Positions 56,944-63,956 of a stretch of 64,000 bases of DNA are shown here, piece after piece. A model generated the notes under the pieces. That model did not search any database. It was given only the letters and a program-made list of their open reading frames with translations, and was not told the origin of the DNA. Within the stretch, counting starts at the first letter, position 1. Each line of letters opens with the position of its first letter. The stretch comes from Patescibacteria group bacterium. GTDB taxonomy: Bacteria; Patescibacteriota; Microgenomatia; UBA1400; Chisholmbacteraceae. The stretch lies in NCBI GenBank assembly GCA_022564195.1, contig JADFLW010000003.1:12747-76746 (forward strand), read 5' to 3'. The translations under genes and the position numbers were made by a program.

Positions 56944-58407
56944 TCACTTCACCGTTGTTGCCGCGCAGGTCCCAAGGACCAACCACGGGTCCATCCAACC
57001 CCGATTCATCTCTCCGTAGAGAACGAAGTCATCGGGATGCTGATCGGAAACCCCGATATGGACATGCGATCCAGCATCGGGATTCTCAGAAGAAGGCTTC
57101 GGATAGACGTCGCCGGTATTGCCGCACTCGCCGATCTTTTGGCCTTTCTTCACCTTCCTTCCCGGGATCATCAAGAACGCCTTCTTGTCAAGGTGGGCGT
57201 ATACAACGTAGATCCCACCATGATCGATCCAGATATGCTTTCCGAACCCGGTGATCCCATCCATGAGCGTACCGGACGAGGGCTTGATGATCTTCCCGTC
57301 CGCGAGAGCCACGATCGGATCGCCTGTCGAACAGTCGAAGTCTCCACCGTAGTGGATGATGATCTTCTTGTGTCCATCCTCGTCTTCGACCTCGCGTTCT
57401 TCGAGCCACTCCCCAGTCACTACGATTGGGAAGCCTTCCGGAAACGGCGCTTCAAGAAACCCCGTCACTTCCGGCAGGAGCCCGAGCGCATCCAGGAGGT
57501 CGATGATCCATTTCCTGAGGAAGTCAAACATTCCCCAGTCAACGGTGTCTTCCGACCCTCCCGTGCCGATGACGCCGACGTCCCCAACGAGAGCATTGAT
57601 CTCTGCAGCCCTATTGACCAGGACTCCGACATAAACAAAGTCGCAGTTCCAACTGCAGTACAACGCATCGATCTTCTCTTTGCGAGACAGATTCGCTCTG
57701 TAGCCGATGGCATGCAACCAGGCGGGGATCGCGTGGAAGGAAACCTTCTCAGACCAGAAGTCACAACTTCGAACTTCGTCGTCGTTGCTCTTCTTCAGAT
57801 ACTTCTGGCAGACGATCTTCGCCGTTGTCGGTAGCCAACCGCCCCGACCCATCTCTCCGGCGCCACAGTGGCTTATGTAGCCCCCGTAGCCCTCGTAGAT
57901 ATAGGCGCGGGCGATCGGATTGCGATCCCGGACATCGTGTTTGCGCCAGTGTCGCATCATCCACCGGGCAGCGGCTAACTCCTTGCGAAGTTGCCGAGGG
58001 TTATGACCCCAGCGCTGCTTGATGCTCGATTGCCAGTCGCAGGAGCCCATGTTGTTCCCACTCGCGGATTCAAACTGCTCGATCGTGAGCAGAATGCCGA
58101 TGTCGATGTTGGCGCCGAAGCGGCGGTTACACCATAAACGCCCGGCCTCGGCATTCGCCACGGCTGAGGGAGAAAATCCCAGGGATGCAACTCGCTCCTG
58201 ATCCTCAGGGGACAGGGCAAAGTCGTATCCGCCGCAGCCGAGTCCCAACCAACGACTAACGATCTCGTTGTAGGAGTTGGGAAAGGTGGCGTGGGCGTAC
58301 CACGCGAACATGATCCCGGTAAAGGAACCGAAAATCAACAGAGGTACGCCCATCAAACTCACCAGCCCGATGAATCTACGCAGGAGTCGTTGTCCTGCAT
58401 TCATCAT
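56944..58407 (-). CDS. TM-anchored cell-wall hydrolase with C-terminal M23 (LytM-type) peptidase domain
   Basis: N-terminal TM (FIGLVSLMGVPLLIFGSFTGIMFAWY). The M23 motifs are HYGGDFD...GDPIVALADGKI...HIWIDHGGIYVVYAHL...VKKGQKIGECGNTG...GSHVHIGV. The middle domain is unassigned. Confidence 0.75.
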   Translation of the reverse strand: MMNAGQRLLRRFIGLVSLMGVPLLIFGSFTGIMFAWYAHATFPNSYNEIVSRWLGLGCGGYDFALSPEDQERVASLGFSPSAVANAEAGRLWCNRRFGANIDIGILLTIEQFESASGNNMGSCDWQSSIKQRWGHNPRQLRKELAAARWMMRHWRKHDVRDRNPIARAYIYEGYGGYISHCGAGEMGRGGWLPTTAKIVCQKYLKKSNDDEVRSCDFWSEKVSFHAIPAWLHAIGYRANLSRKEKIDALYCSWNCDFVYVGVLVNRAAEINALVGDVGVIGTGGSEDTVDWGMFDFLRKWIIDLLDALGLLPEVTGFLEAPFPEGFPIVVTGEWLEEREVEDEDGHKKIIIHYGGDFDCSTGDPIVALADGKIIKPSSGTLMDGITGFGKHIWIDHGGIYVVYAHLDKKAFLMIPGRKVKKGQKIGECGNTGDVYPKPSSENPDAGSHVHIGVSDQHPDDFVLYGEMNRGWMDPWLVLGTCAATTVK

Positions 58408-58416
58408 GCACCGCCA

Positions 58417-60717
58417 TCACCACTGGCGTCCGGTGACATTCAGGATGCTGTCCGGAATGTCGTTGATCAGGTTGTAGTACACTTCGTCCCGATCCACCGG
58501 ATTCCGCACGATGATGCGGTAATACGGCATCTTCCGGAACCAGAGTTCCAAGGGGAAGGATTCGGCAAACCCCTCGATGAACGCCTTGACCTGATCGACC
58601 GTGTGCGCCGTAGCCACGAACCAGATGCGATCCTTATGGATCCCGTCCAGGGCATACACGCACCAGTCGCGTCCTCGCATGCCGATATCGTGGGGGATCA
58701 TGCCCAGCTCTTCATGCTTAGTGAGCGCCGGCCAGGCGTAGATGTCTTCGATGGTCAGCGAACAGATCGGGGGCGTCGGCCACTCATAGCCGGCATACCC
58801 GGTCTCCCACTCCTCATACTCGGGCGTCACTCCCTCGATATCGTCGGGCGGGACTGCCCAGTTCCTGAAGCGGAGGTTGAACTCCTCCAGATCAGCGAGC
58901 ACGTAGTGGGAGTAGGCGAAACTCTTGATCGAAGGCATGAGAAGCTCTGGCATACCGACGAACTTGCCCGTCTTCCACCATTGCTTTGCCTTGGCTTGAA
59001 CCCGGGCGCGTGCCTGCGCTTCTACCTTGCGCATCAGTTCCATCTGGTCCTCGACGGTGTGCGCATCTGCGATGCTCACCACGTTGATGTCACCACCGTG
59101 GTGCTTGACCCAGTTGATGGCACCCTCTTGCCTGGCAGTCGTCAAGGCAACACGCTTGCCGAAGGGGCCGACCTGGTTGCCGCCGAGGGCAGCGTCCCAA
59201 GTGGTCTTCCCGCGTTCACCTTTGCCAATGAGCAGGAGATGTTTGTAATTCTCCCGATCGATGAAGACCGGATGCCCGGTCTCCTCGTCTTTGCCCCAGT
59301 AGTGGGTACCCTGGATCTCGCCGATCCCGTTGACCGTCGAGACCAGCCCGTGCAGCAGCTCATCAGCACCAGTCGTAACCGTGTGCCGGAACCGAGTCAG
59401 GGGATAGTCCAAGATCGGATCCAGTGGCGGTGCCCCAGGAATCATTTTCCGGAACGCCTTCTGCAGCTGGTCAAACAGCCCCGTGACTCTGTGCCACTCT
59501 CCCAGGTTGCTGAGCCTGAGCTCAACATCGTCGAACTTGGGCATCCGCCCGTTTTCGATCTGGGAGGAGGTGCGGAGGAGCGTCGTGATGTACAGCTCTC
59601 GGGATTGAAGATCACCCTCAAACCACGGCAGCTTGACGCGCTCACACTGAATCCAGATGTCCAGATCCAGCTCCGGGTCAAGTAGATCCTGCAGAAACTC
59701 GTGCGGGAACGGACCCTTCCAGATCCTGTAGGCGCGATCGCCCAAGATGTAGTAGTCATGCCGCCATTTCGGGCGGATCGGGCAAGCAACCTCCAGGGGA
59801 GGCAGTGGTCGTTCAGCCAGCTTGATCGGCCGGCGGTGAATCACCGAGTGCAGGAACGAACCGAACAGCTGATAGGGCAGCACCAAGCCGCCCATCGCCG
59901 CCGAAGTCCCGCGACTACCGATGAACGCACCCGAGAGACCAGTAATGATCAGGTTCCTCTCGTAGAGTTCCTTCCCATCATAGCCCTGTTGGTAGTCACC
60001 CAGGGCAGCGTCTTGGATCTCGTCGATCAGAATCTTATAGGGGCGATTCCCCTGACGCCTGATCTCGTCCAGATGTCTCTTGAAAGGTTCCACGATCATC
60101 GGCGAGTTGAGAAGGAGCATGGTGATGACGTTGCCAAGATGGGAGTCACCCCAATGGTGTAACATCAAGTTGATACCCGCCACCACATGACGTGTGCCGT
60201 CCTCGTCAGGCACGGTATATCCGTGCTGGAGCGGTCGATTGTGAAACACAACCGATCGCCATTTCTTGCGAGTTGCGGTCGGATCGCTGTCAGCCTTCTT
60301 TCGCCAATTGGATGGCCAAAGGCGAGCCAGAGTGGCAAACAGTCCTTTTCGATCCGAAAGCTCGAGCGGAGCGACCATCAGCATATTGCCGTAGCGTGTT
60401 TCTGCGGTCGCGCGAAGCCCCAAGATTTCTTCAGCGGTTCCCTCGTCAACATTGGGATCCCTTTTCTTGCGGGCTGAGATCCTCAGCGGTTCACGCTGAG
60501 GTTTGCTCCCCATTTTCTCTTCCATTACGGAAGGAAGAAGGGGCGCCGGTGTCCTCACTCCCCGAGCGAGCATATGGCCAACCTCTGGCAGTTCCGGCTC
60601 TGGTTGTTCCAGATCCGGTTGTACCGCCTCCGGTTGTTCCACACTGTGGTCAGCCTCTGGCTGTGGCTGTACCACAGTCCCGTCAGGGTGAACCTCTGCC
60701 TGTGCGTCGGTATTCAT
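58417..60717 (-). CDS. Large P-loop NTPase, VirB4/TraC-class candidate
   Basis: ATG 60717 (SD GGAGG 4 nt upstream) gives about 766 aa. Walker A LLLIGKGERGKTT sits about two thirds along. The N-terminus is acidic and Pro/Glu-rich. Size and neighbours (small 2-TM gene before, hydrolase after) fit T4SS VirB4-like ATPases, but the family is not verified. Confidence 0.5.
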   Translation of the reverse strand: MNTDAQAEVHPDGTVVQPQPEADHSVEQPEAVQPDLEQPEPELPEVGHMLARGVRTPAPLLPSVMEEKMGSKPQREPLRISARKKRDPNVDEGTAEEILGLRATAETRYGNMLMVAPLELSDRKGLFATLARLWPSNWRKKADSDPTATRKKWRSVVFHNRPLQHGYTVPDEDGTRHVVAGINLMLHHWGDSHLGNVITMLLLNSPMIVEPFKRHLDEIRRQGNRPYKILIDEIQDAALGDYQQGYDGKELYERNLIITGLSGAFIGSRGTSAAMGGLVLPYQLFGSFLHSVIHRRPIKLAERPLPPLEVACPIRPKWRHDYYILGDRAYRIWKGPFPHEFLQDLLDPELDLDIWIQCERVKLPWFEGDLQSRELYITTLLRTSSQIENGRMPKFDDVELRLSNLGEWHRVTGLFDQLQKAFRKMIPGAPPLDPILDYPLTRFRHTVTTGADELLHGLVSTVNGIGEIQGTHYWGKDEETGHPVFIDRENYKHLLLIGKGERGKTTWDAALGGNQVGPFGKRVALTTARQEGAINWVKHHGGDINVVSIADAHTVEDQMELMRKVEAQARARVQAKAKQWWKTGKFVGMPELLMPSIKSFAYSHYVLADLEEFNLRFRNWAVPPDDIEGVTPEYEEWETGYAGYEWPTPPICSLTIEDIYAWPALTKHEELGMIPHDIGMRGRDWCVYALDGIHKDRIWFVATAHTVDQVKAFIEGFAESFPLELWFRKMPYYRIIVRNPVDRDEVYYNLINDIPDSILNVTGRQW

Positions 60718-63397: not shown

Positions 63398-63401
63398 GGC
63401 G

Positions 63402-63956
63402 CTACCGTGGAGCTGCCGGTTCCGCGAACTCCTGAGTGAAATGGTCGATGATGTTCACTCCTCGAGGGGGCAGGAAGCTGTCGAAACCGATCAGTTCACC
63501 CGCGATCCCGATGACGATGATGATCCCGACCATGATCCCGATCCAGGTGCCTATGGGCGAAGGTGCGCCTGCTGCCGTCGGTCTCCTCACGTTTAACGGC
63601 CCGAAGAAGACCGCATAGAGAATAACCAACACACCGGCGACGATGACGTACCAGTGAATTCTCAACAGAAATCTCTCTTCGTCTTCACCTTCCTGCAGCA
63701 AGACGCCCATGAGCAAAATGCCCGTGAACGCCGTTGCCTGCAGACGCGTTCCAGAAATGGGGCCATAGTTACGCTCCCCGATTCTGGCGAGATCGATCCT
63801 CGCTGTCAGCCGCTGAAGCGGTTTCAGCAGAAGGATCGCGATCGTGTAGAGCAAAGCCAACACGATCAACGGGTTGGGCTCAAGCAGAAACTGCACAAGC
63901 CCCGAAAATGGGGTGGAAAGCATCGCCACTCCATGAGCAAAAAGTGTGTCCAACAT
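63402..63956 (-). CDS. Four-TM membrane protein, function unknown
   Basis: 184 aa. ATG lies 6 nt after SD AGGAGAG, and the stop lies 4 nt before the next start. Confidence 0.55.
   Translation of the reverse strand: MLDTLFAHGVAMLSTPFSGLVQFLLEPNPLIVLALLYTIAILLLKPLQRLTARIDLARIGERNYGPISGTRLQATAFTGILLMGVLLQEGEDEERFLLRIHWYVIVAGVLVILYAVFFGPLNVRRPTAAGAPSPIGTWIGIMVGIIIVIGIAGELIGFDSFLPPRGVNIIDHFTQEFAEPAAPR

Follow-up and report, generated by a model that had tools for sequence, protein, structure and literature searches.

We analyzed a stretch of 64,000 nucleotides (nt; hereafter the window) from contig JADFLW010000003.1 of a Patescibacteria group bacterium and found, on a GC-rich island in its last part, a set of minus-strand genes that probably encodes the core of a very divergent envelope machine resembling type IV secretion systems (T4SSs). 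The machine appears to be of the monoderm (MPF_FATA-like) kind, and Patescibacteria are themselves monoderm. Its central component would be an ATPase of 766 amino acids (aa) with a predicted VirB4 fold, accompanied by a cell-wall hydrolase and several membrane proteins. The window is part of an 83.7-kb NCBI contig in a metagenome-assembled genome named 'Patescibacteria group bacterium', where the island proteins (MCH7951391-97) all carry hypothetical annotations. A preliminary description of this DNA had read the gene order as a Gram-positive-type T4SS core with VirB6-, VirB3- and VirB4-like proteins followed by a VirB1-type hydrolase. This interpretation is partly supported by our results, which bear out the VirB4 fold, the hydrolase, and the gene order and leave the identity of the VirB6 and VirB3 candidates unproven. 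Absent from that description are the hammerhead ribozymes, the Rho-like ATPase of the same conserved module, the compositional island beside a tRNA gene, and the Patescibacteria host.

The case for a VirB4-like ATPase is made mainly by its predicted structure. An AlphaFold model from the single sequence was useless (pLDDT 34); the model built from a 29-sequence alignment reached a pLDDT of 80.2 and a pTM of 0.75. When this model was compared with the PDB by Foldseek, the top matches were six chains of TrwK/VirB4 from the R388 T4SS (E 1e-13 to 2e-11, TM-scores 0.38-0.44), with alignments that span 750-898 columns and therefore both domains. The structural comparison with VirB4 that had been proposed as a check thus came out in its favor, with HerA (2e-6), EccC (2e-5), FtsK (9e-5), and the coupling proteins TrwB and TcpA (about 1e-3) at lower ranks. 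On the evidence of this model, the 766-aa protein is predicted to have the two-domain VirB4 fold with the Walker A lysine intact. The Walker A motif, already noticed in the preliminary description, reads GKGERGKTT, and its residues G503 and K504 are invariant in 29 relatives, while reading by eye suggests a Walker B-like hhhh[D/E]D motif with an invariant D658 and an RK...T.H motif formed by K695, T703, and H705. No hydrophobic segments are present in the protein. Its open reading frame (ORF) extends over 58417-60828 and would give 803 aa from a TTG codon; gene callers pick the 766-aa version, which starts at an ATG at 60717 with AGGAGG just before it.

Relatives of this ATPase, 32 in number, were recovered when 1.84 billion cluster representatives were searched exhaustively with HMMER. 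A word-indexed search of 5.8 billion proteins retrieved only the ATPase itself, tblastn found nothing in 72,556 plasmids or 50,697 phage records, and scans of GTDB (185,579 species genomes) and IMG/VR with patterns from the ATPase and from the N-terminal domain of the hydrolase gave pattern matches of which 0 were confirmed. No model in Pfam, NCBIfam, PHROGs, or PADLOC matched the ATPase, and both phmmer and a profile search of PDB sequences returned generic P-loop matches only. Comparison of the ATPase family with an alignment of PrgJ-type VirB4 proteins by hhalign gave a probability of 83.5% and an E value of 8e-6 over just 78 columns, centered on the Walker A motif and the next strand.

A second line of evidence is that the gene order is kept in at least five divergent metagenomic lineages. 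The same order occurs at every locus to which we could trace a relative of the ATPase (L002, L005, L006/L007/L008, L015, and L017, the last on a 349-kb NCBI contig): a membrane protein of 120-184 aa, a polytopic protein of 486-592 aa, a protein of 111-134 aa, the ATPase, and the M23 protein, followed, where the contig goes on, by a protein of 493-585 aa and an ATPase of 456-499 aa. Protein identity across the syntenic lineages is 23-48%, with 48% for the ATPase of L002, and blastp identifies every partner in the window as homologous to its counterpart in L002 or L006. Since homologues of all of them recur in unchanged order on other contigs, these are real genes of a conserved module and not chance ORFs. 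The ORFs, sizes, and topologies given in the preliminary description are likewise present, all on the minus strand, in the ORF list and in the hydropathy scan from which we called transmembrane (TM) segments. The features of the island are collected in the table.

Features of the island and its border, with positions in the window
Feature	Position	Strand	Remarks
184-aa membrane protein	63402-63956	-	ORF; three hydrophobic segments; first conserved core-block gene within the window
592-aa polytopic membrane lipoprotein	61619-63397	-	ORF; VirB6/PrgH position of pCF10
127-aa two-TM protein	61243-61626	-	ORF; directly upstream of the ATPase gene; VirB3/PrgI position
HH-a, predicted type III hammerhead	60997-61086	-	525-nt spacer downstream of the 127-aa gene and upstream of the ATPase gene; predicted cleavage after GUU, at about 61076
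766-aa VirB4-like ATPase	58417-60717	-	ORF; N-terminal domain and C-terminal P-loop domain
487-aa cell-wall hydrolase	56944-58407	-	ORF; one N-terminal TM segment and C-terminal M23 domain
HH-b, predicted type III hammerhead	56783-56854	-	407-nt spacer that follows the hydrolase gene and precedes the 540-aa gene; GUC as cleavage triplet
540-aa protein; two N-terminal TM segments, large soluble part	54915-56537	-	ORF; PrgL (VirB8-like) position
116-aa ORF with two hydrophobic segments	54226-54576	-	Three other assemblies break in its 3' part, at 54269
HH-c, predicted type III hammerhead	53996-54064	-	Upstream of the Rho-like gene; cleavage triplet GUU
499-aa Rho-like RecA-type ATPase	52200-53699	-	Last island gene in the window
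Terminator-like hairpin, 14 pairs then T-run	52002-52032	-	3' of the Rho-like gene, where GC returns to the host level
tRNA-Val(cac)	51497-51572	+	About 430 bp from the compositional boundary

The 487-aa hydrolase contains the M23 domain that had been noticed before (Pfam Peptidase_M23, residues 351-455, E 7.7e-17), and its gene lies directly 3' of the ATPase gene at all related loci, with 35-48% identity. A dedicated peptidoglycan hydrolase, which is what a VirB1 role calls for, is therefore part of the module. The N-terminal domain of the protein (about residues 40-290, approximately 250 residues) is well conserved and rich in Cys and Trp, with an invariant E74 and the motifs AGE..G..P and SCD.W. 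Profile comparison found no PDB relative of this domain, and no SLT match was obtained. By eye, motifs such as E[ST]..G and AGE.G..FLP.T recall a lytic transglycosylase of the MltB/SLT type, an assignment that is unsupported by the PDB profile search and by hhalign against an SLT protein and against PrgK. In L006, a gene for a 164-aa protein resembling a 2x[4Fe-4S] ferredoxin (13920-14414) follows the hydrolase gene; it is absent from the version of the module in the window.

The membrane partners are recognized by topology, position, and conservation. In the 592-aa protein, six hydrophobic segments lie within the first 250 residues, the first being a signal peptide with the lipobox LILAAC and the other five TM segments, and the lipobox Cys21, His152, and Asn-Thr-Arg 175-177 (a GNTRP motif) are invariant across four homologues, the syntenic ones being in L002, L005, and L006; a word-indexed search with this family added no relatives. 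The C-terminal part of about 340 residues (61619-62600) is a low-complexity tail behind the membrane domain, rich in Arg, Gly, Pro, and Ser. Homologues of the 127-aa protein (111-134 aa) occupy the same position in L002, L005, and L006, and genes of 116-120 aa stand there in L015 and L017; conservation in this family is weak except for the two hydrophobic helices, and no Pfam or NCBIfam profile matches the 127-aa protein. The 184-aa protein has a syntenic homologue of 172 aa in L002 (31% identity, E 9e-14) and genes of 120-165 aa at its position in L005, L006, L015, and L017, with no match in Pfam, NCBIfam, or PHROGs. For the 540-aa protein, syntenic homologues are found in L002 (40% identity, E 3e-107) and L006 (E 9e-19), and genes of 493-524 aa take its place in L015 and L017; the protein has no Pfam or NCBIfam match, and a comparison of its family profile with the PDB was empty.

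Among known systems, the conjugation module of pCF10 offers the closest parallel in layout that the preliminary description had drawn, and the prgH-prgI-prgJ-prgK order is indeed matched when the PLSDB annotation of pCF10 is consulted: PrgH of 266 aa, a PrgI family protein of 117 aa, a VirB4-like ATPase of 796 aa, a hydrolase of 871 aa, and a 208-aa protein. Both cores consist of a polytopic protein, a two-TM protein, a two-domain VirB4-type ATPase of about 770-800 aa, an anchored hydrolase, and a further membrane protein. The differences are equally clear. Sequence similarity between PrgJ and the ATPase of the window is limited to the columns at the Walker A motif mentioned above. The hydrolase, with its TM anchor, its M23 domain, and its gene after that of the ATPase, agrees with the proposed VirB1 type, but SLT and CHAP domains, which mark the usual type, were not detected in it. 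The 592-aa lipoprotein has a long disordered tail and finds no match in PrgH, and the module has no detected VirD4/PcfC, relaxase, or adhesins, while it has a Rho-like ATPase and hammerheads that pCF10 lacks. The best two-domain structural match, TrwK/VirB4 of R388 (PDB 8rtb, 8rtd, 7o42, 7o43), shows 9-10% identity in the alignment and belongs to a diderm system whose VirB7/9/10, VirB2/5, and VirB11 have no counterparts in the module.

A comparison with the T4SSs of the host phylum is also informative. In a recent study, about 80% of 3,035 Patescibacteria genomes had an HMM-detectable VirB4 (HMM, hidden Markov model), forming a clade nested in MPF_FATA; homologues of VirB3, VirB6, and TrsD and genes for VirB2-like pilins, often in dissimilar arrays, lie near virB4, a relaxase is usually absent, and the T4SS is frequently near dnaA (Quinonero-Coronel et al. 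2025, PMC12102498). A peptidase or lysozyme often comes after virB4 in this phylum, and the genes that directly follow virB4 in Southlakia epibionticum encode an essential peptidase and lysozyme (Wang et al. 2023, as summarized in PMC12857230). The present module resembles these systems in its host phylum, its chromosomal location, its monoderm type, the usual lack of a relaxase, the peptidase or lysozyme after virB4, and the arrays of small proteins. It differs in that the VirB4 of the Patescibacteria clade is found by standard HMMs, whereas the family of the window matches no Pfam or NCBIfam profile and is far more divergent; in its location on a GC-deviant island and not near dnaA, where the T4SSs of the clade often lie; and in its small proteins, which match no pilin profile. 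Upstream of the core and past the window end, five genes (L001 3170-5428) form an array whose products measure 111-139 aa and have two to three hydrophobic segments apiece. The array recalls the divergent arrays of VirB2-like pilins at Patescibacteria T4SS loci; the five proteins show no mutual sequence similarity and no Pfam match.

Several observations weigh against a T4SS-like machine. In the island, the 6.7 kb beyond the window, L006, and L017, we found no second ATPase of the FtsK/VirD4 type, no relaxase, and no recognizable pilin, the rest of the contig being outside the scope of this search. The preliminary description had identified no relaxase, coupling protein, or pilin in the window, and profiles found none here either; the sequence past 64 kb, taken from an identical ENA contig (L001/L009), gave no relaxase or coupling protein. 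Profiles for T4SS families (CagE_TrbE_VirB, DUF87, P-loop_TraG, AAA_10, TrbL, PrgI, the VirB4 families, and others from Pfam and NCBIfam) did not match the ATPase of the window at E values up to 1, nor did those of Pfam match its 29 relatives at E values up to 0.01, and among the proteins of the module the Pfam comparison proposed earlier gave Peptidase_M23 and no T4SS family, and NCBIfam gave none either. The ATPase family has [D/E]D in place of the Walker B DE of VirB4, and the TM-scores against TrwK/VirB4 are moderate and were obtained with a predicted structure. As for the partners, hhalign detects no resemblance of the 592-aa family to PrgH and Pfam no TrbL/VirB6 match, so that the VirB6 label of this family, given by topology and position, is unproven. 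The same is true of the VirB3-like label of the 127-aa protein, which reflects its size, two TM segments, and position, and of the 540-aa protein, a positional VirB8 candidate.

The last gene of the module encodes a RecA-type ATPase of 499 aa with the Walker A motif GPGGVGKT, for which a two-sequence profile (the window and L006 copies) gave Rho proteins as all ten best PDB matches, led by Mycobacterium tuberculosis Rho (7oqh, E 2.6e-8). NCBIfam Rho models scored 14-23 bits, compared with cut-offs of 315-628, and the Rho2 model reached an E value of 5e-5. L006 has a homologue in the corresponding place (28% identity, E 4e-38), which ATP-synt_ab-type genes of 456-459 aa fill in L015 and L017; the Rho-like ATPase is a conserved member of the module. 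Its likeness to Rho covers the ATPase domain, where by eye the motifs GER..D.TD and RVELY...RA.RL parallel Rho, and a counterpart of the N-terminal RNA-binding domain of Rho is unassigned. Rho is a housekeeping gene, while the 499-aa protein is a fixed member of a secretion-like module. In the window copy, Gln seemingly replaces the Walker B Asp of Rho and of the L006 copy, and a 7-residue insertion is apparent, both by eye.

In addition to its proteins, the island carries in its spacers what appear to be three complete type III hammerhead ribozyme motifs (HH-a, HH-b, and HH-c), all intergenic, on the coding strand, and with a complete CUGAUGA...GAAA core. They were found with a descriptor (core C3 U4 G5 A6 N7 G8 A9, G12 A13 A14, an A15.1-U16.1 pair, and H17, with helices I, II, and III and the open end at helix III), which we used with shuffled sequences in place of a covariance model because MAFFT misregistered the 5' halves of the hammerheads. 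The descriptor gave three sites in the window and three elsewhere (L002 9712-9768, L006 9644-9725, and L017 9770-9835), and 0 matches in 100 shuffles of the window. The position of HH-a, between the two-TM gene and the ATPase gene, is kept in L002, L006, and L017, with compensatory stem changes that retain pairing. A three-way junction is present in the thermodynamic fold of five of the six, HH-a included, and is also the centroid structure of HH-b, whose fold has a z-score of -4.9. In Rfam, the Hammerhead_3 model matches HH-c alone (37.3 bits, E 3.7e-5, under the gathering score of 48.5). HH-a, HH-b, and the hammerheads of the other loci are absent from the Rfam results (RF00008, gathering score 48.5 bits), probably because their stem II inserts are long.

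Groups of hammerheads are known to flank gene blocks in the operons of prophages and mobile elements, where they cleave long transcripts (Perreault et al. 2011, PMC3088659). The present case shares with those arrays the presence of several complete coding-strand hammerheads between gene blocks on an island that looks horizontally acquired, and differs from them in that the hammerheads are of type III with long stem II insertions and that one of them is fixed before a VirB4-like gene in four lineages. We found no description of such an association.

The spacers themselves are related. Blocks of 78-87% identity that contain CUGAUGAG...CGAAAC occur in both the 525-nt spacer ahead of the ATPase gene and the 407-nt one ahead of the 540-aa gene. 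A cassette consisting of a hairpin, a hammerhead, a CACTTTGACAACACAACAAGA box, and a second hairpin is repeated at 60700-61250 and 56520-56960 and partly at 53700-54200 (minus strand). Its first hairpin is terminator-like with a T-rich tail (61136-61157 and 54123-54144), and its second, CCCGAC...GTCGGG with a T-run, lies just ahead of the start codon (60798-60812 and 56617-56631). A simple sigma-70 scan called no promoter in these repeated cassettes. Two ORFs called on the minus strand, 60993-61211 (72 aa) and 56534-56998 (150-154 aa), are translated hammerheads with their flanks and are probably not genes; for example, ...PLYVGPDEPLSG... within the called ORF is CCGCUAUACGUCGGACCUGAUGAGCCC.

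Our results lead us to propose how such a machine might work. The 127-aa protein would tether the ATPase hexamer to the membrane in the manner of VirB3, and the 592-aa lipoprotein would form a VirB6-like membrane channel, to which the two-TM 540-aa protein and the 184-aa protein may contribute additional channel or scaffold parts, while the hydrolase would open the wall locally and so permit assembly. Long operon transcripts may be cut into gene blocks by the three predicted hammerheads, and the hexameric Rho-like ATPase could either regulate these transcripts or act as a motor that stands in for a VirD4-type coupling protein. Contact with host cells and their exploitation is as likely a role as DNA transfer, because neither a relaxase nor a coupling protein can be detected, which is also the case for most T4SSs of Patescibacteria. 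At its most speculative, and in our estimate very improbably, the module would represent a new class in which a Rho-like translocase of RNA or single-stranded DNA replaces VirD4 and the RNA units defined by the hammerheads, with 5'-OH and cyclic-phosphate ends, serve as substrate or regulator; if true, this would amount to RNA-linked type IV-like secretion in episymbiotic bacteria.

The island is distinct from its surroundings. Positions 1-51400 of the window are ordinary chromosome (mur genes, ftsA, rodA, ileS, glmS with its ribozyme, parB, and lepB), and GC steps from 0.45-0.49 to 0.55-0.60 at about 52000, near the strong terminator-like hairpin at which the minus-strand genes of the island end; a cupin gene of host-like GC sits between the tRNA-Val(cac) gene and this boundary. 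At the head of the module, the protein encoded in L002 at 5111-5842 has a C-terminus matching Pfam RNA_pol_A_CTD, the C-terminal domain of the RNA polymerase alpha subunit, and a 462-aa protein (L001 23-1411) aligns to it over 158 residues with 28% identity. This head protein could function in DNA processing or as a regulator that binds DNA.

These features raise the question of whether the module belongs to a mobile element. An integrative conjugative element, in which the machine moves the DNA of the island and the relaxase, coupling motor, and integrase are too divergent or lie outside the sequence seen, is in our judgment unlikely. Several observations would fit it: the VirB4 fold itself, the head protein with its RNA_pol_A_CTD-like DNA-binding domain, the hammerhead arrays typical of mobile elements (PMC3088659), and the composition of the module, whose GC exceeds that of its flanks by about 8-18 points in all four settings with visible flanks (module and flank GC of about 0.57/0.48 in the window, 0.47/0.38 in L002, 0.55/0.37 in L006, and 0.47/0.40 in L017). 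The module has tRNA genes beside it in three settings (the window with tRNA-Val(cac), and L002 and L006/7 with tRNA-Ala and tRNA-Val(gac)), but it is the 5' end of the tRNA, and not the usual 3' end, that the module faces in L002 and L006, L017 has no tRNA near the module, and a search for tRNA-derived, att-like direct repeats found none. Moreover, no integrase, relaxase, VirD4/TcpA, or replication protein was found in about 20 kb of the element or in L006, L007, and L017, a search that did not cover the 19.7 kb of the contig outside the window, and none of the plasmid, phage, IMG/VR, and GTDB-representative collections yielded a confirmed relative.

A prophage or tailless, membrane-containing virus would account for the ATPase as a packaging or delivery motor of the FtsK/HerA/VirB4 type, for the M23 protein as a lysin, and for the small proteins as virion components or holins. 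Packaging ATPases known from that clade are small and consist of one domain, which argues against this explanation, as does the composition of the gene set: a comparison of 27 proteins (the module and its relatives) with PHROGs and Pfam revealed no capsid, portal, terminase, tail, or integrase protein, and PHROGs gave only the M23 matches and the ferredoxin-like accessory protein of L006. The M23 matches themselves, to PHROGs of phage lysins and tape-measure proteins, would fit a virus, as would the deviant GC of the island, the nearby tRNA, and the frequent grouping of bacterial hammerheads around prophage gene blocks (PMC3088659). Viral structures in BFVD include full-length matches to large Bacillus phage ATPases (E 1e-9 to 3e-7), with TM-scores of 0.19-0.24 that are much weaker than those of the VirB4 matches, and no relatives were found in IMG/VR or the phage records. 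Taken together, we regard a viral origin as improbable. Still less credible is a translocase of the HerA/FtsK type that serves a purpose other than secretion, such as defense or DNA processing, next to membrane proteins by coincidence. The preliminary description had held that a match of the ATPase to a family of this kind, with no T4SS profile match for its neighbors, would overturn the T4SS reading; the neighbors are indeed without such a match, but HerA and FtsK are not the best matches of the ATPase, HerA falling about seven orders of magnitude behind VirB4 in Foldseek with a lower TM-score. PADLOC gave nothing, no nuclease, Sir2, or other HerA partner is present, and at all loci seen the ATPase is strictly accompanied by the membrane proteins and the hydrolase.

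Patescibacteria are believed to depend centrally on T4SSs for living as epibionts, and surveys of these systems use VirB4 profile HMMs. The Pfam negatives suggest that a standard VirB4 HMM would miss the present family. If the divergent T4SS-like machine that we favor is real, a whole conserved VirB4-like lineage evades VirB4 profiles, and surveys in which approximately one-fifth of the genomes seemingly lack VirB4 may undercount T4SSs. The compact and recurrent set of VirB4-like ATPase, M23 hydrolase, lipoprotein channel candidate, and Rho-like ATPase could be used to probe which parts of a monoderm T4SS are indispensable and what takes the place of the coupling protein. The positionally fixed hammerhead before the VirB4-like gene would also provide a clear, testable case of ribozyme processing in a secretion operon.

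Some further observations concern the structure of the island and its vicinity. On either side of the Rho-like gene lies one copy of a perfect inverted repeat of 18 nt, AACCAAATAAGAACGCGT (51937-51954 on the plus strand and 53785-53802 on the minus strand, 1.85 kb apart), the inner of which overlaps with a TTGACA box ahead of the gene. The contigs NODE_1109 and k141_1109168, which are independent, both stop exactly at window position 54269, where ZHOU22 scaffold_563 has a run of 10 N; no repeat accounting for the breaks was found at 54240-54269, and they may mark a structural variant or a population junction. Past the window end, ENA contig L009 contains a 2.84-kb tandem duplication (1-2842 and 3565-6406, 99.8% identity), which may be an assembly artifact or real. 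The duplicated block encodes the 462-aa protein, whose C-terminus is helix-hairpin-helix-like, and proteins of 110, 142, and 64 aa, and another scaffold stops inside it. In the ordinary chromosomal part of the window, an ordinary glmS ribozyme lies upstream of glmS (32506-32716, plus strand; Rfam, 55.8 bits), so that the host itself uses a riboswitch.

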